A DNA stretch of 64,000 nt from Escherichia coli. GTDB lineage: Bacteria > Pseudomonadota > Gammaproteobacteria > Enterobacterales > Enterobacteriaceae. The stretch is from assembly GCF_001677475.2 (NCBI RefSeq), contig NZ_CP015229.1. One strand, written 5' to 3'. A program made the position numbers and the translations under genes. The notes beneath the pieces are model-generated. The model had not been told where the DNA came from. It did not search any database and saw only the letters and a list, made by a program, of their open reading frames with translations. Numbering within the stretch: the stretch's first letter is position 1; every line of letters begins with the position of its first letter. Below are positions 35,837 to 47,711 of this stretch, piece after piece.

Positions 35837-37219
35837 CTAAAGACTGGCTTTCCAGAGTTCAACACGGTTTCTACCTCGTCTTTTGGCGATATACAGAGCT
35901 TCATCGGCTATTTGAATGAGGCGCTCATAGTCAGGATGACCATTAAACATGGCGGCACCGATGGAAAGTGAGAGGGCAATATCCTCGCCGTTTGCGGCTT
36001 TCAGTTTGGTTTTCTCCACCCGACTGCGAATACGTTCTGCGGTACGTAACGTTTCGTTTTCCGAAGCTTCAGTCAAAACAATGATAAATTCATCGCCCCC
36101 GTAGCGGAAAACATAATCACTACTGCGGACGTTGTCATAAAAGGCCTGAGAGACTTTACGCAGAATTTCATCGCCAGTGTTATGGCCCCACGTATCGTTG
36201 ATCTCTTTGAATTTATCAACGTCAATAATCAGCACTGACAGCGGTGTACCGGTCCGGTTGGCATGGGCAATTTCGCGTTTGAAAATAGTCGGCAGGAAAC
36301 GGCGGTTAAGTAATTTCGTCAGTACATCCATACCGACTTCGTGGCGCGATACTTCTTCAAACAATTCACGCAGCAAGGTAATAATTTGCGATACGGTATT
36401 TCTTATCTGTAATAAAAATTTCACCCGCAGACTTCTGTTATTCAAATTCCTGGTGTTACGCATGGTTTGATTGAAAATACCGTCGAAATCCTGAATCAGA
36501 CGGGAGATATGGCCCACTTCGGCAATGCCGCTAAAATAATGTCGACCTTTATGGTTAAACCACAGGCCAAAATCAGCCTGGCTTAAAGGCAAACTACTGC
36601 CTAAATCAGAATCCAGCAGGACTTTATAGATAATATCTATTTCCCATGAAAGTAATGAGGCTATTTGCCGTTCTTTTTCTTCTTCGGCATTTTCCAGTAA
36701 CGAGAAGATACGATAGTTTTCATCTTCTTTTGAGGCACTACTGTCACTAAAGGTAAACGCGCGGGTCATCACTTCCATAGCGATATCAATACTGTTAATA
36801 GAGAAATGGTAGACCTGAAGTTTTTCTGCGGCGGAATAATCCGAAGAGAAGATGACCGGATAGAGGATTTTTTTCAGCACCCGAAACCCCATCTCGACAA
36901 TTTCTACCGGAATTCCTATGCGGGCATGCACTTCCGCGACGGTATGCTGGATTTGTATTAGCCTTTCGACATCGTCAACCTGGGCAGAAAGCACGTTAAT
37001 AATCCAGCGTTCCATCGCACTTTTCAACTGCCGCTCAACTTGTTCATTACTCAAGAATTCTTCGGCATGCGGGTCGATACGGACAATTCGGTAAAACTCA
37101 ATACTCAGATAATGGGCATGCGCAACGGCAATTTCCGCGGCTTTAGCACGAATGAGCGGATCTGCTTGTTCGACAAGCCCGGTCCACTCATCTTTCATTC
37201 TTTTAAAATACATCTCCAT
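35837..37219 (-). CDS. dosC: oxygen-sensing diguanylate cyclase (globin-coupled sensor)
   Basis: 460 aa; GGDEF active site (RYGGDEF) in the C-terminal half; 24 bp upstream of dosP. Confidence 0.9.
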   Translation of the reverse strand: MEMYFKRMKDEWTGLVEQADPLIRAKAAEIAVAHAHYLSIEFYRIVRIDPHAEEFLSNEQVERQLKSAMERWIINVLSAQVDDVERLIQIQHTVAEVHARIGIPVEIVEMGFRVLKKILYPVIFSSDYSAAEKLQVYHFSINSIDIAMEVMTRAFTFSDSSASKEDENYRIFSLLENAEEEKERQIASLLSWEIDIIYKVLLDSDLGSSLPLSQADFGLWFNHKGRHYFSGIAEVGHISRLIQDFDGIFNQTMRNTRNLNNRSLRVKFLLQIRNTVSQIITLLRELFEEVSRHEVGMDVLTKLLNRRFLPTIFKREIAHANRTGTPLSVLIIDVDKFKEINDTWGHNTGDEILRKVSQAFYDNVRSSDYVFRYGGDEFIIVLTEASENETLRTAERIRSRVEKTKLKAANGEDIALSLSIGAAMFNGHPDYERLIQIADEALYIAKRRGRNRVELWKASL

Positions 37220-37595
37220 AATTCACACCCTTATAAGGCTGGGAAAGCAGACGGAATCAAAACGAAACGCAACGTGCGAGATCGACTAACTGCACCATAT
37301 TCTCCTGAAATATGAAGATATACTGAAAACAAATAAGCGACTTAGGACAGTTTCAATCTACGCTACTGTTCTTCAGAAGAGTATAGCCCATCGTAATTAT
37401 TTTTCGGTGACAGCGAATATCGTATGTTTTTTCATATTCATACATTTTTATTAGGGGATTTATGGCTATTTAACTAAGTGTGGTTAATTGCGTGGTGAAT
37501 TTGACTTAAGTAAGCATGATTACTAGTGGGATATTTCAAGAGGGTAGCAAGCCGGTGGGTAAACCACCGGCTTGTCACAAAGTATGAATGGGAGT

Positions 37596-38915
37596 TTAAC
37601 TGCCCCAACGACTTTGCAGATAGCTGACCGCTTGTTGAGTCTGCGGTTTATTCAGATAGTCCTCACGGAACAAGATGGTGCCGCTAATTTCTGGTACCGC
37701 ATCGTTAAGATCGAGCTGCTTTTTCAGTTCCGGTACGCCGCCGTTAATCATCCAGTCTGGCTCTATCTTTGAAGGTTCACCCACTTTATAGAAGGCGATA
37801 CCGATATACAGGCGGGTCCTGGTCGGTTTAACGACATCCGCCCACCATTTTGCCAACACGTCATAACGCGCGGCACTCCGTGAGAACGGCCAGTAAATTT
37901 GGGGAGCAATGTAATCCAGCAATCCTTGTTCCACCCATCGACGGGTGTCAGCGTAGGATTCGTCATAGGCTGCCGCGCCTCGGGTATCGGAACCGAGCGG
38001 ATCGTGTGATCGGTTACGCCACACGCCTGCCGGGCTAACACCAAATTCGACTCCCGGCTTAATGCTTTTAATGGTGTGCGATACCTTTGCAATTAACTGC
38101 TGAGTATTGTTGCGCCGCCAGTCTGCTTTTGACGCAAATGCGCCTCCGTATTTACGGTACGTTTCGTTATCATTTAGCCGTGAACCCGGTGATTCAGTAT
38201 AGAAATAGTCGTCAAACTGCACGCCATCTACCGGATAGCGGGAAACCACTTCCGCGACTATTGATGTGATCCAGTCCTGAACCTCAGGGATGCCCGGGTC
38301 GAGGACAAAGCGATCGCCGGACGTTCTGATCCAGTCGCGGTGTTGCACATAGACGCTCGCCGGTTGTTGAGACAGAGTGCTATTCAGTTCCCTGATAGTA
38401 CCGGGCTTCGTATTAACCGATACGCGATAGGGGTTAAACCAGGCGTGTACTTTCATCCCACGCTTGTGAGCTTCGTCGAGAATAAATTGCAGCGGATCGT
38501 AACCTGGATTTTCACCAATCTTTCCGGTCATAAGATCGGACCACGGCAAAATTTTCGATGGCCACAGGGCGGTACCGTCCGGCTTGACCTGGAAAAAGAC
38601 CGTGTTTATGCCGAGACGTTGCAGATGATCCAGTTTGTCGATCATCGCCTGTTGTTGTACACGTGCCCGGCTGGTGGGGTTACTAATGTTAACCGAGGAA
38701 ACCGGTGGCCAGTCGAGGCGAGACACCGTGGCCAGCCAGATGCCACGCATCGGTTGTGACGATTGTTGCGTCGTGGCTGGTGGCTTCGAACCTGTTGGTG
38801 GTGTCACCATTGACTCTGGGGGCGTGCTTTTGCAACTACACAGTAAAAGTGCCAGTGCAACCAGTACCGCGGGTCTTCTAATCGCTAATTTCTCGTTTCG
38901 GGAGCAGATATCCAT
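37596..38915 (-). CDS. yddW: outer-membrane-anchored lipoprotein glycoside hydrolase (GH10-like)
   Basis: 439 aa; lipoprotein signal with LLLCSC lipobox region. Confidence 0.85.
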   Translation of the reverse strand: MDICSRNEKLAIRRPAVLVALALLLCSCKSTPPESMVTPPTGSKPPATTQQSSQPMRGIWLATVSRLDWPPVSSVNISNPTSRARVQQQAMIDKLDHLQRLGINTVFFQVKPDGTALWPSKILPWSDLMTGKIGENPGYDPLQFILDEAHKRGMKVHAWFNPYRVSVNTKPGTIRELNSTLSQQPASVYVQHRDWIRTSGDRFVLDPGIPEVQDWITSIVAEVVSRYPVDGVQFDDYFYTESPGSRLNDNETYRKYGGAFASKADWRRNNTQQLIAKVSHTIKSIKPGVEFGVSPAGVWRNRSHDPLGSDTRGAAAYDESYADTRRWVEQGLLDYIAPQIYWPFSRSAARYDVLAKWWADVVKPTRTRLYIGIAFYKVGEPSKIEPDWMINGGVPELKKQLDLNDAVPEISGTILFREDYLNKPQTQQAVSYLQSRWGS

Positions 38916-39045
38916 ATATGCTGGTTTCCGGTAAACAGATGTGCGCTCATTCTCGTACTTATCCCGGTTAAGTCAATACGACAGCGAGCACGAAAAAGGG
39001 AGCGATTAATTATCGCTCCCTTGTCTTATAACCATTCAGACATGG

Positions 39046-40581
39046 TTAGTGTTTCTTGTCATTCATCACAATATAGTGTGGTGAACGTGCACGCGGGTGC
39101 AGGAAGAAGTGACCTTTTGGTGCGTTCTGACTGTTGATTGGCTCCAGAGTGACGCCGGTATTCGCTTTGCCTTTACGATCATGAACAGCATAGAGAATAA
39201 AGGGCAGGGCAAGTACCACCAGGAAACTAACGACCAGTAATTCAACATACATATCGGTAGAGTCACCCTGGATGTTATCCGGCGGCAGGAAGGAAACAAT
39301 AAACGCCATAATTGAAGTCAGCAGACCGACAATAGCCACGACCAGTTTCACCCCTTTACCACCAGGGATATTAAATGTGCGTTTTAAGTCAGGATGTTTA
39401 AGAACCAACACAATGTAGCCAATAAACAGCATGAAATAAGCACACAGATAAATCACCACCGTCAGCGCCAGTGCGATCAGGAAGGACATGTTGTTACCGC
39501 CACCGGTATTGGTGAGGATGATCAACGCGATAGAAGTAATCACCAGCTGCGAAATGACCAGCGTTACCGGTACGCCATTTTTGTTCATTTTAGCGAATGC
39601 CGCTGGCAGCAGGTTTTTCTGCGCTGTGACATACATCCCGCGAGAAGGACCAACAATCCAGGAGGCGATTTCCGCCAAAACACCCAGCAACAACAGTGCG
39701 GAGATCACGCGAACCGTCCACTCAATTTCCGGTGCCACATGGGACATCAGAACGGTAAAGGTTTGCATTACCCCTGCGGAGAGGTTGATTTCATTACCCG
39801 GAATGACCATCGCAATAGACAAACCGCCAACAGAGCTTAAGCAGATTGCCGCCACCATCAGCAGTAACATAGCCAGTGGATAGTCGCGCCCGGGGTTGCT
39901 CATTTCATTGACGTGAGTTGCGGAAGCTTCTACGCCCATATAACTCAAAATGAAGGCAACAAATACAACCAGGGTGCCCACTTTAGAGAAGTCAGGGAAG
40001 AAGGTCTTCGAATCCATTTCGATAGCAACGGGGGCACCGGAGTGCAGATAAATAGCCGCTAATGCGATCAAAATAAATGCAGGTAACAGGATACCGGCGA
40101 AGAAGCCAACTTTAGCAATTCGTGCCGTGTATTTCGTGCCACCAAACTGCGTTAATGCCAGCGCCCAAAGAATGATGAGTGCTGCAATAGTTTTGGTAAT
40201 GGGGTCTTCATTCAGCGCTGGCCATTTCAGGATGTAGGAGAGTGCCCCTAACACGAAATAGAGCATCGGAATAAAACCAATGGCGATTTGCAGATAGCCA
40301 AATGAGATCGCTGCAAATCCCCATCTCGGCCCCAGAGTATTTGATACCCAGGCGAAGACACCACCTTCTTCCCAGCCGTCGACGGTGGCCATTTCCGCAG
40401 CACAAAGTCCCACGGGAATAAACCATAAAATCCCGCCTAATAGCAGGAAGAAGACTAATGAAAAGCCCGATGTTGCGAAGGTAGGGTATTCATAAACAGC
40501 CATTACCATCGATGCCGTTATGGCAAAAAAGCCGAGTAATGTGAGCTGCTTAGCTTTACCTGTCTGTACTGATGTAGCCAT
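39046..40581 (-). CDS. gadC: glutamate:GABA antiporter
   Basis: 511 aa APC-family transporter, [33 protein letters not shown]... Confidence 0.92.
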
Positions 40582-40736
40582 ATTATCCCCCTAAAACGGT
40601 ATTCCTGTCGGAACCGCACCTGTTTTGTTCTGAAGCGTATTCAGAACAATATTTTCCGTTGCTAATGCCAGTGAACAGACTTTGGAGATTGTCCCGAAAC
40701 GGGTTCGTTTCGGGACACCGTTACCGTTAAACGTTA

Positions 40737-42137
40737 TCAGGTATGTTTAAAGCTGTTCTGCTGGGCAATACCCTGCAGTTTCGGGTGATCGCTGAGATAT
40801 TTCAGGGAGGCTTTGTAGTCTTCCAGCAACAGTTCAGCAAAGTCCATTTCGAAGCCACGACGACACATAATGCGCATCACCACGATGTCAGTGGCTTCAC
40901 CGCCGAGAGTGAAGGCCGGAACCTGCCAGCCGCGCAGACGCAGACGTTCAGAGAGGTCGTAGAGGGTGTATCCCGGATCTTCACCATCTTTCAGTTTGAA
41001 GCAGACCGCCGGGATGCCTTCGTCCGGACGACCGGTACAGATGAACTCATACGGCCCCAGTTTGGCGATCTCATCCGCCAGATAGGTAGCGACCTGATAA
41101 GAGGCGTTCTGTACTTTGGTATAGCCTTCACGACCGAGGCGCAGGAATTCATAGTACTGTGCAATTACCTGACCCGCCGGGCGGGAGAAGTTGATGGCGA
41201 AAGTACCAATCTGACCACCGAGGTAGTCAACGTTGAACACCAGTTCCTGCGGCAGCGCTTCTTCGTCACGCCAGATAACCCAGCCGCAGCCCAGCGGAGC
41301 CAGACCGAATTTATGGCCTGAAGCACTGATCGATTTCACCCGCGGCAGGCGGAAGTCCCAGACGATATCCGGGGCAACGAACGGCGCCAGGAAGCCACCG
41401 CTGGCAGCGTCGATGTGCATGTCGATGTCGATACCGGTGTCGGCCTGGAATTTATCCAGCGCATCGTGCAGCGGTTGCGGGAACTCATAGTTACCGGTGT
41501 AGGTCACGCCGAAAGTCGGCACCACGCCGATGGTGTTTTCGTCGCAGGCTTCAATCATGCGTTTCGGGTCCATAAACAACTGACCGGGGCGCATAGGGAT
41601 CTCACGCAGCTCCACATCCCAGTAGCGGGCGAATTTATGCCAGCAGATTTGTACCGGACCGCACACCAGGTTTGGTTTATCCGTTGGTTTGCCTGCAGCT
41701 TCCATACGCTTGCGCCAACGCCATTTCATCGCCATCCCGCCGAGCATACAGGCCTCGGAAGAACCAATGGTGTTGGTGCCAACGGCCTGACCATTTTTCG
41801 GCGCAGGCGCATGCCACAGATCGGCAACCATATTTACGCAACGCAGGTCAATGGCTGCGGATTGCGGATATTCTTCTTTGTCGATCCAGTTTTTGTTAAT
41901 GGATAAATCCATCAATTTGTGGACATTTTCGTCGTCCCAGGTCTGGCAGAAAGTGGCCAGGTTCTGACGAGCGTTGCCATCAAGATATAATTCGTCATTG
42001 ATAATCTGGAATGCGACATCGTCGCGCATTTCGTGCAGCGGAAAACGTTTTGATTCTGCGATAGTGGAAATAGACTTCGCACCAAAACGTGAATCGAGTA
42101 GTTCCGACCTTAAATCCGTTACTTGCTTCTTATCCAT
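40737..42137 (-). CDS. gadB: glutamate decarboxylase beta
   Basis: ORF trimmed to ATG 42137 ([24 protein letters not shown]...), 466 aa; AGGAG RBS; PLP-lysine motif [10 protein letters not shown]. Confidence 0.92.
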
Positions 42138-42216
42138 TTTAAACTCCTTAAAATGATTGGATCGCATTAAAAAAGTAGGATTTATCGATAAAGTAAGCAA
42201 GTGCAAAGGACTCGTG

Positions 42217-42236
42217 TTTAAATAACAAAATCCTAA
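42217..42236 (-). promoter_or_regulatory. GAD box (GadE/RcsB site), exact 20-mer TTAGGATTTTGTTATTTAAA
   Basis: The reverse complement of 42217-42236 is exactly the GAD box sequence, 80-100 bp upstream of the gadB ATG. Confidence 0.65.
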
Positions 42237-42454
42237 TGTTATTTATCGTGAGATATTACACGAATAATATTTTTTCATTGAAAAACAATATAATATGGAA
42301 TTCCTGGGTGGTGGTAAGGTGTTTTATGCTGTTATTTTTATGCGCATTATGTGCCTCCTGAATTATCACGTAAAAATCAGACCTTAAAATATCACTATTA
42401 GTACTTGGTTATTATTTTGAACGCATTTATAAAATTATTACATAAAAATAGCGA

Positions 42455-42493
42455 ATATTGATAAAATCCCCGCCAACGATGTGTTGACGGGGC
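42455..42493 (-). terminator. terminator-like hairpin immediately after the pqqL stop
   Basis: ccccg...cgggg imperfect stem (42468-42493), followed on the minus strand by AUUUUAUCAAUAUU. Confidence 0.4.
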
Positions 42494-42498
42494 TGTTA

Positions 42499-45294
42499 TT
42501 ATTTTGGCAATAATATTCCAGTATAAGTATTTACCGGATGAGAAAGATATTGTTTAACGGCAGTGTTAACATTCTCTACCGTCATTTGTTTCAACAATTG
42601 CTCCTGCTCAGTCCATGCTGCAGGATCGTCATATTGAATAAGACTATTTACAATAGTGTTCGCTAATTGTTGAACGCTACGCTGTTGGATATCGAGGCTG
42701 CGCTGAACGTTTTGCTGGTATTCATTCAGTTCTTGCTCACTGATCCCTTTAGCCAGACGCTTAACCATCACTTCATTCGCTAACGTTAACAGTTCATCAT
42801 GTCGTTCTGGTTGACAAGTAAAAGCCAGCAAATGACTGATATCTTTGGCCTCAGGATCAACCGAGAGGCGAGAAGAAACGCTGTATGCTCCAGATGCCTG
42901 TTCACGAATATTAACGCGTAGATCTTTTGCCAGTGCGACGTTAAAAGCATCGAGCGCCATACGCGTCTCCAGATTTACAGGTGTCCGGGAATCATAACGT
43001 TTCCACTGTGAAACCTGTGCCACAGGTTCATTTTGTTCTTTTACAGTAACCGATGCGTTGTCCGTCGCGCGAGTTAATGGTTTACCTGCGGCTAATGGCG
43101 AATCAGAGTGTTTGATTGATCCTAAGTAACGCGTAATTAACGCCACGAGTTTGTCTTCTGCGACATTACCGACAATGACAAACGTGATATCCGCTGGAGA
43201 TGAAAACAACTGGCGATCGGCAGCCAGCGCATCTGCGGCAGTAAACTGTGCAATCTGATTTTCTTGCAGTAATTTCGTGCGGTCATCAGCATAGCGCGTC
43301 TCATACATCTGCTGGGCGAATTTCTCCGCTGGACGCTGGTCGAGCGTTTTCAACGCCTGAATTTGAGCATTTTGTAGCGATGCCCAAATATTATCGTTAA
43401 TCGTGCTGTGGGTGATTCGCTGGTTAATCAACTGGAAACCAGGTTCAGGGTTATTAGTCCGCGTGCTAACAGAGAGCAATGTATTCATGCCACTGACTTT
43501 ACTGCTCATGGTTACCGAGTTTTCCGCACTCCAGCGTTTCAGGCTGGAAGAGGAGAGTTCACCAACGCCGCTTCCGCTTACTGCTTTATTTGCCAGCGCG
43601 ATAAGTGATTTTTGCTGCGCAGGGAAACTTAAATCGCCTTTATTAGATACGGCAGTAATTTGTAGCTTTTGCTCTTCACCCGCGGATTTTGCCAGAATAA
43701 CCCTGGCACCATTGGAAAGTGTTAATGATGTCAGATTCTCAGCCAGCGTTTCTTTGCTGCTAATTTCCGCCAGTGGGTCAGCGTCTACTGTTAACGATAA
43801 ATTTCTGCCTGGGAAGATGTAAGCCGCCAGCTTTTTGTTGGCGTACTCTTTTTCCAGCGCCAGGATAGCCGCAGGAGACAATGCTTTTTTGGCAGCAACC
43901 TCATTGTTTACCATTTGCTCCCAAAATGCATCCTGGTTCTTTCTTAACTGCTGCCATTTTTCCGCCAGACTTTGCACGGTAATTTGCTGCCACAGACGTT
44001 TCGAAAGTTGATATGTCTCTTCCGGCGACAAGAACGGCGTATTATTTAATGAGCTGGATGCCAGGCGACTGGTCAGCATACGTAAATCACGTTCAGCTTG
44101 CTGATCAACCGCATTTTTCAGCCAGGTGAGGCGGGTAGATTTGACATCATCGAGTTCTTCAGCAGAAAAACCATGCTGATCAATGGTTGCCAACTCTGCC
44201 ATTAATGCATTCGCAGCATCCTGCATATTATCGTCTCGTGCATTTACACGGAAAAACAGCGACTGATAATCGGGTGCAATTTTAACGCTGCGCGCAGTGC
44301 CGCCAGAAATAGTCTTCAACTCGCCCGACTGTATGCGTTCCTGCAGACGTTGATTGAACAGCTGAACTAACATGCTCCATTCCGCTTGTTCGATAAAGCT
44401 TTGCTCATCGTTCACTTGTACCATTGGCAGGCGATAATAGAGTGCGATGCCGTTCACCCGGTTTTCTTTATCATTAATGATATTAAAGCGCAGGTGATTT
44501 TCGGCTTTTGTCGGCCAGACGCGATTTTCAGCTGCTTTGTTAGCCGGAAGCTTACTTAAATTATCCTTTATCAGCGCCAGCGCTTCTTTACTGTCGATAT
44601 CGCCGACCACGATAAAGGTCATATTATTTGGTTGATACCAGCGTTGATAAAATTGGCGCAATTGTGCCGGTGTGACCGTGGCGACAGTATCCATCAGGCC
44701 GATAGGTTCACGGTCTAAATTACGGGTATTAGCCAGCAGGAAAGGGCGGCGCGCCTGAGAGGTGCGCCATTTCGCATCCTGATGGGCACGCCATTCCTCA
44801 GTAATTACGCCACGTTCAGCGTCAACTTCGAGTTTTTCAAAGGTTGCGGCATTACTCCATTCACTGAAGATTGCCATCACTTGTTGCAGATTTTGTTTCT
44901 GCGTAGTCGGCAAACTCACCTGATACACCGTTTCGTCATAGCTGGTATAGGCATTAACATCGCGACCAAAACGCAGGCCCATTGACTCAAATGTTTCGAT
45001 GACTTTATTACCCGGCCATGTTTTTGTGCCGTTAAACATCATATGTTCTACAAAATGAGCCACGCCGCGCTCATTGTCTTCTTCCTGCAATGAACCGGTA
45101 TGAATTTGCAGCCATAAATTTATCTGATCCTTTGGATGAGCATGCGGATAAATCATATATCGCAAGCCATTGTCCAGTTGCCCGGTAATTAACTTTTCAT
45201 CCTGCGGTAAGGCGGCGGCAATCAGCCGCCCGGGGAGCAACAGAGTTGCCACTAACGTCAGTAAGAAACAGAGGTTTCTCATAATTATCTCCAT
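42499..45294 (-). CDS. pqqL: periplasmic M16-family zinc metalloprotease
   Basis: 931 aa; HxxEH inverted zinc motif (HFVEHMMFNGT); signal peptide; alternative start at the internal MRNLCFLL. Confidence 0.88.
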   Translation of the reverse strand: MEIIMRNLCFLLTLVATLLLPGRLIAAALPQDEKLITGQLDNGLRYMIYPHAHPKDQINLWLQIHTGSLQEEDNERGVAHFVEHMMFNGTKTWPGNKVIETFESMGLRFGRDVNAYTSYDETVYQVSLPTTQKQNLQQVMAIFSEWSNAATFEKLEVDAERGVITEEWRAHQDAKWRTSQARRPFLLANTRNLDREPIGLMDTVATVTPAQLRQFYQRWYQPNNMTFIVVGDIDSKEALALIKDNLSKLPANKAAENRVWPTKAENHLRFNIINDKENRVNGIALYYRLPMVQVNDEQSFIEQAEWSMLVQLFNQRLQERIQSGELKTISGGTARSVKIAPDYQSLFFRVNARDDNMQDAANALMAELATIDQHGFSAEELDDVKSTRLTWLKNAVDQQAERDLRMLTSRLASSSLNNTPFLSPEETYQLSKRLWQQITVQSLAEKWQQLRKNQDAFWEQMVNNEVAAKKALSPAAILALEKEYANKKLAAYIFPGRNLSLTVDADPLAEISSKETLAENLTSLTLSNGARVILAKSAGEEQKLQITAVSNKGDLSFPAQQKSLIALANKAVSGSGVGELSSSSLKRWSAENSVTMSSKVSGMNTLLSVSTRTNNPEPGFQLINQRITHSTINDNIWASLQNAQIQALKTLDQRPAEKFAQQMYETRYADDRTKLLQENQIAQFTAADALAADRQLFSSPADITFVIVGNVAEDKLVALITRYLGSIKHSDSPLAAGKPLTRATDNASVTVKEQNEPVAQVSQWKRYDSRTPVNLETRMALDAFNVALAKDLRVNIREQASGAYSVSSRLSVDPEAKDISHLLAFTCQPERHDELLTLANEVMVKRLAKGISEQELNEYQQNVQRSLDIQQRSVQQLANTIVNSLIQYDDPAAWTEQEQLLKQMTVENVNTAVKQYLSHPVNTYTGILLPK

Positions 45295-45338
45295 GCGAAA
45301 ACCGGGCGAATTTACCCGGTTAAGTAAAATCCGAACTA

Positions 45339-47711
45339 TTAAAATTTCATGCTGACATCAAGCCAGAAAGTACGGCCACTGGCGTAGGTCGCCACACCGG
45401 TATTCGTTGTATCAACAGCGGTTTTGCTATCCAGTACATTGAGAATATCGGCACTGATCGTCAGGTTTTGTTGTTTCAGAAATTGTGGCGTCCAGGACAA
45501 GCGGGTGTCCCAGGTCAGGCTGCTATCCAGTTTTTCGTCAACATACTGCTTGTAATCTGAATATTCGCTGTTGTATTGCGCATTCGTCTTACCCAGGATA
45601 ATGCGAGCTTTACGCGCTTCTTGCCAGGCCAGCGTATTCGCCCACACCAACCCGCTCGGTTGATGCGTGAAATCCATGTTTAAGGAGATCTTTAATGGGT
45701 TATTAAAATCCGCCACTGGAACGCTATCGTAAGAAACCAGATTACCGTTATAAACCACCTGGTTATCACCGGTATTGCTCTCCTCATAACCATTGTTTAA
45801 CGACAAGTTGCCCTTGCTCTTGATATAGCTAAAGACAATTTGCGGGTTAATATCTACCTGGCTGATATGCAGGGGTTCGGCCAGTTCAAGACTGAGGTTA
45901 AACGAATGCGTTTTGGTTTTGCCGTCGTTGTTATATTCAGTAATGGTGGTTTTAGTCGCGCTGTCGGTACGACTGCTTTTGCTGATTTGATCATGCGCTT
46001 CACGGTAAACATAGTTTGCGCGCGCAATAACGTTCTTACCGAATTTTTGCTGCAATCCCATTGCCAGTTCATCGTTATAAGGCGTTTTCAAATCCTGATA
46101 ACGCGTCAGGGTTTTATTGCCTGATACAGATTCCGTCCAGCTATTGCGGATATCACGTAATCCCATATCAAGAATATTCCCGCCATAGTAACGGTTATAA
46201 CCTGCGGTAATCATTGAGGTTTGATCAGCAAAAATATCCCATTCCGTCATAAAGCGTGGGGAAATATTGTGGTTTGACAGATAGTTGTCATAGTCATACC
46301 GCACGCCGGGCATTAACGACACATTACGCCAGCTAATGCGATCCGCCATATACAGCGTGTAGTTGTCAATTCCCAGGCTGCCTTTACCTTTATGGTAAAT
46401 GGTATGGTTAGTTTTCTTTCCGGCAGCATTAATCACATAGGATTCAGACTGGTTATGGCGTTCGGTCCATGCATCGGAATAGATGTATTCCGCGCCGAAG
46501 TAGGGTTGATGAGAAACATTACCCACGGTGAATTTTTGCCAGTCCAGGCGTGTTTTGAAGGTGTAATTATCTACAGCCTGGGAAATGTGTCCTAATCCGC
46601 CACGGGTGCAACGCCCTGTAATATCACCATATGTACATGAAAGTTCGGTGTACCAGATGTCATGATCGTGACGGGTATAATCACTAATATGATCCCAACC
46701 AACGGTGGTACGTAGTTTGGCCCATGCGAGATGCGTATCCATATCCCATGCCAGACCGTAGGATTTATTACCCATTTCGCGATCAGACTGCGGGAAGGTG
46801 CTGGTATTATAATCACGGCTGGAGCCGGTATATTTTAAGGTTAAATCGTGGGTAAAGCGGTCGCTGGCAAACCAGGTAAATTTGCTCACTGCGGTATCGA
46901 TAACGTTTTTGTACTGTGCCCGACCGGCGACAATGCCGTCATTCGAAACATAATCCGCGCGGGTGATATCAGACTGGCGGCGCGATAAACCGGCGGTAAC
47001 GCCGAAGTTATGAGCGAGTTCCTGATTAAATGACAAAGTATAAAAGTTCTTTTTAAAATCTGGAGAGTAATAAGTACTTCCTGAAGAACCTTGATTAAAT
47101 GCGCTCTTGTTATTCTCATCGATATGCGATGTTAACCAGTCCGAACGCGTAGTGCGGTAACCCAGTTTCACGCTGCTATCATCAGCGTTGAAGCGTTTGA
47201 TCTTTGCATCAATTACCCCGCCATTGAAGCGACCAAATTCAACCGGCACAAAACTGTCATAAAGCGTCACATTGTCCAGTAAGCTGACATCAAGATAATA
47301 CCCCTGTGACATCCCGCTAATATTGGTTGCACTACTGGCATCGGACTCATTCGCTGGGTTCAGGTTATTAGTTGCACTAATACCGTCAATCAAATAGGCA
47401 TTCTGGTAGGGCGACGCACCGTGAATAGAGATTTTCTCCGGGCGAATATCTCCCTGGTTCAACGAGGTACTTTGCGTTGAATCCATGCGTACCGCAGGGT
47501 TGGTTCTCAGCAGATCGCTGATATTGCCATTCCCGGTCGGTAAACGCTCGATGCTTTCACTGGTGTAATGCGTGTTGCCGTTTACGGGTACAGGGACAGG
47601 AGCATAGACCGTCATCTCTTCAAAAAAATGCATGTACATGTTTTTGTCATCGACGGCCTGCGCCACATCAGCGCCACATAAAATGACGCCAGGAATAAGA
47701 ACTCGCTTCAT
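45339..47711 (-). CDS. yddB: TonB-dependent outer-membrane receptor
   Basis: 790 aa; signal peptide, plug-domain and beta-barrel features, C-terminal ...WLDVSMKF. Confidence 0.88.
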   Translation of the reverse strand: MKRVLIPGVILCGADVAQAVDDKNMYMHFFEEMTVYAPVPVPVNGNTHYTSESIERLPTGNGNISDLLRTNPAVRMDSTQSTSLNQGDIRPEKISIHGASPYQNAYLIDGISATNNLNPANESDASSATNISGMSQGYYLDVSLLDNVTLYDSFVPVEFGRFNGGVIDAKIKRFNADDSSVKLGYRTTRSDWLTSHIDENNKSAFNQGSSGSTYYSPDFKKNFYTLSFNQELAHNFGVTAGLSRRQSDITRADYVSNDGIVAGRAQYKNVIDTAVSKFTWFASDRFTHDLTLKYTGSSRDYNTSTFPQSDREMGNKSYGLAWDMDTHLAWAKLRTTVGWDHISDYTRHDHDIWYTELSCTYGDITGRCTRGGLGHISQAVDNYTFKTRLDWQKFTVGNVSHQPYFGAEYIYSDAWTERHNQSESYVINAAGKKTNHTIYHKGKGSLGIDNYTLYMADRISWRNVSLMPGVRYDYDNYLSNHNISPRFMTEWDIFADQTSMITAGYNRYYGGNILDMGLRDIRNSWTESVSGNKTLTRYQDLKTPYNDELAMGLQQKFGKNVIARANYVYREAHDQISKSSRTDSATKTTITEYNNDGKTKTHSFNLSLELAEPLHISQVDINPQIVFSYIKSKGNLSLNNGYEESNTGDNQVVYNGNLVSYDSVPVADFNNPLKISLNMDFTHQPSGLVWANTLAWQEARKARIILGKTNAQYNSEYSDYKQYVDEKLDSSLTWDTRLSWTPQFLKQQNLTISADILNVLDSKTAVDTTNTGVATYASGRTFWLDVSMKF

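Follow-up and report, generated by a model that had tools for sequence, protein, structure and literature searches.

A stable hairpin just past gadB coincides with an intercistronic mRNA 3' end in the gadBC operon of Escherichia coli

In the gadBC operon of Escherichia coli, a stable 12-bp hairpin (hairpin A) lies shortly after the gadB stop codon, and a transcript 3' end mapped in strain MG1655 falls a few nucleotides past its stem. With moderate confidence, we propose that hairpin A acts as an intercistronic, 3'-end-defining and protective hairpin of the gadBC mRNA, most likely giving rise to a stable message for gadB alone in addition to the complete gadBC transcript. The main system by which E. 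coli resists extreme acid is built around this operon, which also serves in the production of GABA. The analysis was carried out on a stretch of 64,000 nucleotides of E. coli DNA (the window), whose coordinates are used throughout, and the features discussed are collected in Table 1.

The gadB-gadC spacer and its surroundings

Both genes are encoded on the minus strand of the window, with the gadB stop codon at positions 40737-40739 and the gadC ATG at positions 40581-40579, and pqqL is located upstream of gadB. The spacer comprises exactly the 155 nt between the two genes (40582-40736), and its mRNA corresponds to the minus strand. It is well known that gadB and gadC are co-transcribed, and the literature reports the same. 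Comparison of the 355 bases around the site with complete E. coli genomes gave matches over at least 80% of the length in 5405 of 5426 genomes, and the matched regions are annotated as gadB and gadC. The spacer itself was found in 5407 of the 5426 genomes, at 97-100% identity and in one place per genome, and the region downstream of gadA does not share it.

Some further observations were made in the neighborhood of the spacer. Five of its copies are carried by records typed as plasmids. Just after pqqL, upstream of the AT-rich gadB promoter region, a canonical terminator is present on the minus strand (CCCCGTCAAC-ACATC-GTTGGCGGGG followed by ATTTTAT, 42468-42492). Moreover, E. coli KC-Dl-1 (NZ_CP063046.1) has a natural deletion of approximately 125 bp, equivalent to window positions ~40650-40775, which fuses the 3' region of gadB (GGGTATT) to the 5' arm of the second spacer hairpin (hairpin B) at a TATTG microhomology; the gadB stop codon and hairpin A are removed, and gadB is annotated as frameshifted in this strain.

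Table 1. Features of the gadBC region discussed in the text, in window coordinates.
Feature	Position	Strand	Basis
gadB CDS, glutamate decarboxylase, 466 aa + stop	40737..42137	-	ORF list, translation starting MDKKQ; identical DNA annotated in RefSeq
gadB-gadC intercistronic spacer, 155 nt, without annotated feature	40582..40736	-	Genome matches; no Rfam match
Lower helix extending hairpin A in full-length mRNA, 5' strand CGGUAACGG (tentative)	40718..40726	-	RNAalifold, 10 Escherichia spacers
Hairpin A, UGUCCCGAAACG-AACC-CGUUUCGGGACA, 12 bp, GC-rich lower stem	40690..40717	-	Repeat search, folding, Escherichia covariation
Position homologous to MG1655 3' end 1570594	40686..40686	-	Adams 2021; mapped by 61-nt region string and alignment
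Lower helix, 3' strand CUGUUCACUG (tentative)	40669..40678	-	RNAalifold; downstream of the mapped 3' end, in Escherichia-invariant stretch
Hairpin B, UUGUUCUGAA-UACGC-UUCAGAACAA, 10 bp, A/U-rich	40625..40649	-	Repeat search, folding
Hairpin C, GCGGUUCC-GACA-GGAAUACCGU, weak, just 5' of the gadC ribosome-binding site	40596..40617	-	MFE fold and RNAalifold consensus, -8.5 kcal/mol
gadC Shine-Dalgarno GGGGGA, 4 nt 5' of the ATG	40586..40591	-	Read from the sequence; conserved across Escherichia
gadC CDS, glutamate/GABA antiporter, 511 aa + stop	39046..40581	-	ORF list and RefSeq annotation
Canonical operon terminator, GGGAGCGAU-AAUUA-AUCGCUCCC then UUUUU	38992..39020	-	Sequence; Term-seq 1568900 (-); score +18.7

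Structure of hairpin A and of the sequence that follows it

The two arms of hairpin A (40690-40701 and 40706-40717) are 12 nt long, 100% complementary and separated by a loop of 4 nt. The structure begins 20 nt past the gadB stop codon, which, considering the footprint of the ribosome, is far enough for the hairpin to form during ribosome termination, and it lies 107 nt before the gadC ATG. On the mRNA strand it was predicted to fold with -19.9 to -22.4 kcal/mol (z = -4.5 at -22.4), a stability that none of 200 dinucleotide shuffles reached, and the spacer as a whole gave a z of -5.5. A first-pass annotation of this DNA had described two inverted repeats between gadB and gadC, both of which were found there; the stem lengths given for them, 10 bp for hairpin A and 8 bp for hairpin B, did not hold, as the real stems are longer, with 12 pairs in hairpin A and 10 pairs in hairpin B. 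In the full-length mRNA, hairpin A may be extended by a lower helix (CGGUAACGG/CUGUUCACUG), an extension that is weakly supported because the ten Escherichia spacers compared hold one-sided changes only in it, and zero compensatory ones.

With regard to intrinsic termination, hairpin A has a suitable stem-loop (approximately 5-14 bp, GC-rich, with a short loop). The 8 nt that follow it are AUCUCCAA in the window, with 2 U, and AUUUCCAA in K-12, with 3 U, which is below the U-tract criterion of about 5 of 8, and the two positions adjoining the stem are A. This, together with the 8 nt after hairpin B (AACAGGUG, 1 U), bears out the earlier remark that, on the minus strand, a clear U-tract is missing behind both hairpins. 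A d'Aubenton-Carafa-type score (formula after d'Aubenton Carafa 1990) reached -21 for hairpin A in K-12 and -33 in the window, below the threshold and to be compared with +18.7 for the terminator behind gadC, and -76 for hairpin B. The terminator scan of the minus strand called neither hairpin A nor hairpin B.

A sequence variant is found directly after hairpin A: position 40687 is a C in the window (AAUCU), whereas a T is found there in K-12 and in almost every other E. coli (AAUUU). Among 5426 genomes, only the two assemblies of strain d1-58 carry this C, and it drops one of the three U adjoining the mapped 3' end that is described below.

A transcript 3' end at hairpin A and read-through into gadC

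A Term-seq map of 3' ends in E. coli MG1655 has been published by Adams et al. (2021; eLife 10:e62438). In Supplementary file 1 of that work, the sheet 'M63 0.4' (M63 glucose) contains, among its curated 3' ends, one at 1570594 (-) that averages 33,816.8 reads, and the same sheet gives the 3' end of the gadC terminator at 1568900 (-) with 70,553.1 reads. The region string of the former, TAACGTTTAACGGTAACGGTGTCCCGAAACGAACCCGTTTCGGGACAATTT followed by CCAAAGTCTG, consists of 50 nt upstream, the end nucleotide and 10 nt downstream; up to the cut it ends in CGUUUCGGGACAAUUU, and CC stands past it. The end maps to position 40686 of the window, the site of the final U of the K-12 sequence AAUUU (AAUCU in the window); it lies 4 nt beyond the stem of hairpin A and 51 nt downstream of the gadB stop codon. 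The gadC terminator end corresponds to position 38992, 6 nt past the stem of that terminator. Ends at hairpin A combined with a stronger end at the gadC terminator indicate that much of the transcription continues into gadC. In the work of Adams et al., an end is called 'primary' only within 50 bp of a gene; since 51 nt past the gadB stop codon exceeds this limit, the end at 1570594 was labelled 'orphan', with no gene name, and it stands in the supplement as an unlabelled row.

The two LB sheets list no end at 1570594, which is thus listed in one of three growth conditions of one study, and the tables list no 3' end at hairpin B. Supplementary file 2 of the same work, obtained in LB at OD 0.5, where gadBC expression is low, has no Rho region at 15704xx-15706xx. 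At the presumed coordinates of the region after gadA, no comparable 3' end was found. In addition, the examined supplements of SMRT-Cappable-seq, Cappable-seq, Romero 2014 and Clarke 2014 contain no gadB or gadC entries, and a full-text search of the literature yielded no description of the spacer hairpins or of the 3' end at hairpin A.

The first-pass annotation had proposed end mapping of the gadBC transcript as a check, and the published Term-seq data do place a 3' end 4 nt past the hairpin A stem. Its opinion that both hairpins are processing or attenuation structures and not a full terminator agrees with what is seen at hairpin A, where a 3' end and read-through occur together, and finds no support at hairpin B, where no 3' end is listed; attenuation in the sense of a regulated switch found no backing, as the one alternative pairing examined showed no covariation.

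The gadC terminator itself (GGGAGCGAT-AATTA-ATCGCTCCC followed by TTTTT) was absent from the consensus terminator scan despite its strong Term-seq end. The likely explanation is that two A-T pairs extend the stem outward and consume part of the T run.

Conservation and covariation within Escherichia

By exact-word search, three haplotypes of hairpin A, namely GAAC, GAAG and ACAC (3601, 1151 and 362 records), account for 5114 of 5408 E. coli records, and they differ only at the loop or the closing pair. Hairpin B occurs in two forms, TACGC and TACGT (5064 and 321 records, 5385 of 5408 together), which differ only in the loop. The stems of both hairpins are identical in all common E. coli forms. 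At the depth of E. coli, conservation alone is weak evidence, since the whole spacer is 97-100% identical. Furthermore, we observed that the frequent sequence variants of the spacer fall within the loop regions 40702-40706 (hairpin A) and 40635-40639 (hairpin B). Constraint may be lacking at the loops alone, or else the loops may be hot spots of mutation.

Covariation was evaluated in a set of ten Escherichia spacers, including those of E. albertii, E. whittamii and unnamed species. In hairpin A, 6 pairs are invariant and 4 of the 12 have changed on both sides, with 94% of the cells paired; the compensatory changes are found in E. albertii, with a double change from GUCCCGAAAC/GUUUCGGGAC to GCCCCGGG/CCCGGGGC, and in strain SCPM-O-B-8794. 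In hairpin B, 8 of 10 pairs are invariant, one further pair is broken in one sequence, and the fourth pair from the base has changed on both sides in one sequence and is unpaired in three lineages. Together, the hairpins contain 5 double-change pairs, compared to 1.9 ± 1.1 in column shuffles, of which 5 out of 500 reached 5, and to at most 1 in the slid controls. As judged from these alignments, hairpin A is a well-supported selected structure, and hairpin B a more weakly supported one.

Hairpins B and C and the gadC leader

The arms of hairpin B (40625-40634 and 40640-40649) are 10 nt long and 100% complementary, with a 5-nt loop, and the structure ends 43 nt 5' of the gadC ATG. Its predicted folding energy is -10.9 kcal/mol (z = -5.5), no dinucleotide shuffle out of 200 was as good, and only 3 of its pairs are G-C. 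It directly follows an A/U-rich single-stranded stretch, GGAAAAUAUUG, in the gadC leader. We regard hairpin B as part of that leader, with a structure kept within Escherichia; speculatively, it could protect the 5' end of an RNA left by a cut in the A/U-rich stretch that precedes it or, alternatively, insulate the ribosome-binding site of gadC. On the plus strand (40625-40659), TATTTTCC comes after hairpin B, and the terminator scan flags the hairpin there as terminator-like, with the tail UAUUUUCC. A plus-strand terminator was nevertheless discarded, as the MG1655 Term-seq tables contain no plus-strand 3' end at 15705xx.

Hairpin C carries no covariation evidence because it is invariant. In fact, the sequence from just past hairpin A to the gadC start (40596-40684) is invariant across Escherichia, including E. 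albertii. The stretch between hairpin A and the gadC ATG is better conserved than the hairpin A stem, which drifts by compensatory change, and its sequence indicates that it is constrained by something besides the hairpins.

Several candidate elements of the leader were considered and rejected. An alternative hairpin (B', AGCAAC/AUUGUU), which overlaps the 5' arm of hairpin B and is seemingly favored in E69 and in E. albertii, showed no double changes and did not rise above the controls. An anti-Shine-Dalgarno pairing of AUCUCC with GGGGAU is seen when one sequence is folded alone, and it does not appear in the consensus of the Escherichia spacers. Regarding an internal promoter, the sole hit of the scan, CCGACA-18-GATAAT, abuts the ATG, and a candidate found by eye, TTCACT-16-AATATT, matches at 8 of 12 positions, below the threshold.

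Equivalent hairpins in other gadBC operons

A scan for GadC, with one genome per species, gave 80 loci. At 65 of them, gadB immediately precedes gadC in the same orientation, and the spacers measure 19-307 nt. The 50 gadB-gadC spacers from outside Escherichia that are at least 60 nt long were then analyzed for hairpins. The best local hairpin starts at a median of 20 nt past the gadB stop codon and ends at a median of 48 nt before the ATG; it falls in the gadB-proximal half of the spacer in 82% of the loci and in 25 of 32 genus-level groups, and in 29 of the 50 spacers it was matched or beaten by at most one of 100 dinucleotide shuffles. These hairpins have no sequence in common with hairpin A of E. 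coli or between genera. In a Providencia/Proteus-like group of 8 spacers, the hairpin is the sole consensus structure, and 9 of its 13 pairs are compensatory.

As to the 8 nt that follow, 35 of the 50 hairpins have 3 U or fewer, and only 7 have 5 or more. Textbook terminators are found at the orthologous position in Yersinia rohdei (CUUUUUUU) and Comamonas (UUUUUUUA), and Citrobacter sp. also has a full U-tract terminator there. A gadB-proximal hairpin is not indispensable, since it could not fit into the 19-58 nt that separate the two genes in 11 of the 65 gadBC operons. The hairpins of GC-rich alphaproteobacterial spacers, moreover, do not outperform shuffled sequences; on both grounds, the feature is common but not universal. 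The recurrence across genera of a hairpin next to gadB is, in our opinion, a new point, albeit a modest one.

The same loci allowed two additional observations. At non-Escherichia loci (L014-L079), GadC is 70-80% identical to the E. coli protein and the adjacent GadB just 56-61%; it is unusual for an antiporter to be better conserved than a soluble PLP enzyme, and the Escherichia operon may therefore be a mosaic. Moreover, the gadB-gadC order is not universal, as the gadC relatives of Morganella (L048-L051, L054) and of Cetobacterium and Clostridium (L081, L083-L087) have no gadB directly upstream on the same strand.

Proposed role of hairpin A and alternative explanations

Under the role that we favor for hairpin A, RNA polymerase would mostly read through it into gadC, and a sizeable fraction of transcripts would end 4 nt past its stem. 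The GC-rich 12-bp stem would block 3'-to-5' exonucleases, leaving a stable gadB-only mRNA beside the gadBC mRNA, so that more decarboxylase than antiporter would be made from one promoter. The 3' OH could be generated by inefficient termination at hairpin A and the short AAUUU run, or else by an endonuclease that cuts at a more distal site, after which the RNA would be trimmed as far as the hairpin. A role as a barrier is favored as the common denominator, because the equivalent hairpins of other genera are mostly without U-tracts. A Rho loading site after hairpin A was also considered, and base composition speaks against it: no rut-like bias of C over G is seen, with C/G of 0.67-1.0 in 78-nt windows over the 120 nt downstream.

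It is also possible, and to us distinctly less probable than the protective role, that hairpin A is a genuine, weak and leaky Rho-independent terminator, at which RNA polymerase is released by the hairpin together with AAUUU. The 3' end is located exactly at the end of this short U run, 4-5 nt past the stem, a spacing close to the 6 nt of the gadC terminator, and the GC-rich stem equals a terminator stem in stability; the near fixation of T at 40687, replaced by C in 2 of 5426 genomes, and the full U-tract terminators at the orthologous position in Yersinia rohdei, Comamonas and Citrobacter sp. would fit as well. However, the 8-nt tail has just 3 U in K-12 and 2 U in the window, the two residues next to the stem are A, and the score is well under the threshold, and with 35 of 50 equivalent hairpins elsewhere having 3 U or fewer, the U-tract does not seem to be the conserved feature. 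We consider it improbable that the hairpins are functionless inverted repeats carried by a conserved spacer, and that the Term-seq peak reflects a short-lived product of decay without consequences for expression. The 97-100% identity of the spacer within E. coli, the broken fourth pair of hairpin B in three Escherichia lineages and the gadBC operons devoid of any spacer hairpin would be compatible with that idea, which is nevertheless hard to reconcile with the compensatory changes of hairpin A in E. albertii and SCPM-O-B-8794, with the limitation of common polymorphism to the loops, and with unrelated hairpins arising independently at the same position in many genera, accompanied by strong covariation in the Providencia/Proteus-like group.

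A regulatory switch of gadC, in which the hairpins would bind a protein or small RNA, or would belong to alternative folds that control translation or read-through on a signal, is in our view very improbable. In its favor, the stretch from hairpin A to the ATG does not vary within Escherichia, E. albertii included, and it holds GGA motifs as well as the pyrimidine-rich AUCUCC, the partner of the Shine-Dalgarno sequence when a single sequence is folded; CsrA, moreover, is known from the literature to act on other gad genes. Against this, Rfam gave no match, the alternative hairpin examined is without covariation, the anti-Shine-Dalgarno pairing is missing from the RNAalifold consensus, the CsrA paper reports nothing for the gadB-gadC spacer, and a literature search gave nothing on this spacer either. 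A bolder extension of the protective role, which we regard as doubtful, would be that a gadB-proximal hairpin has evolved convergently and is near-standard in proteobacterial gadBC operons, where it sets the ratio of decarboxylase to antiporter through the RNA, and that the invariant leader of Escherichia (the lower helix, hairpins B and C and the GGA motifs) makes gadC responsive to a signal independently of gadB, its translation or stability responding to a signal or factor.

If hairpin A does uncouple the mRNA levels of gadB and gadC, a single promoter could supply a very abundant soluble enzyme together with a much scarcer membrane antiporter, and the hairpin would then offer a simple handle to engineer the GadB:GadC ratio. 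Likewise, an unrelated hairpin recurring at the same position across genera would make a small, testable case of convergent tuning of operon stoichiometry.

Comparison with known systems

A search of Rfam gave no match at E ≤ 1 on either strand of window positions 36000-46000. Mutually exclusive pairings with covariation, by which a transcription attenuator is recognized, were not found, B' being the one competing hairpin seen. Compared to an intrinsic terminator, hairpin A has the stem-loop and the 3' end a few nucleotides past the stem, and it does not have the U-tract. Dar and Sorek (2018; NAR 46:6797) reported that many steady-state 3' ends of E. coli lie just past stable stem-loops without U-tracts, which protect against PNPase and RNase II, and the class they described shows a downstream enrichment of C over G (rut) and sensitivity to bicyclomycin. 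Hairpin A resembles this class in its stable stem-loop, energetically comparable to a terminator hairpin, in the few U that follow and in the precise 3' end immediately downstream; unlike it, hairpin A has a downstream C/G of at most 1, with no rut-like bias, and is situated inside an operon, ahead of a translated gene, and not at the end of a transcript. A repeat family of the REP type could be set aside, since the spacer and the 30-nt queries of hairpins A and B each match one place per genome.

Leaky Rho-independent terminators are also known from the interior of operons, such as the rplL-rpoB attenuator and the internal terminator of rpsU-dnaG-rpoD. Hairpin A shares with them a GC-rich intercistronic hairpin, a discrete 3' end and substantial read-through, but it lacks the U-tract that defines them (2-3 U of 8) and its score is sub-threshold. 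Intercistronic stabilizers of mRNA have reportedly been found in the REP elements of malE-malF (Newbury et al., in 1987) and in the intercistronic stem-loop of the puf operon of Rhodobacter capsulatus (Chen, Beatty, Cohen and Belasco, in 1988). Overall, hairpin A is an unnamed addition to a well-known class, most likely a case of ordinary operon fine-tuning, that leaves the understanding of the acid resistance system unchanged. Like the REP and puf stabilizers, it directly follows an upstream cistron whose product is needed in larger amounts than that of the cistron co-transcribed behind it and, by analogy with them, it would act by blocking 3' exonucleases, so that the upstream segment of the message would outlive the downstream one.
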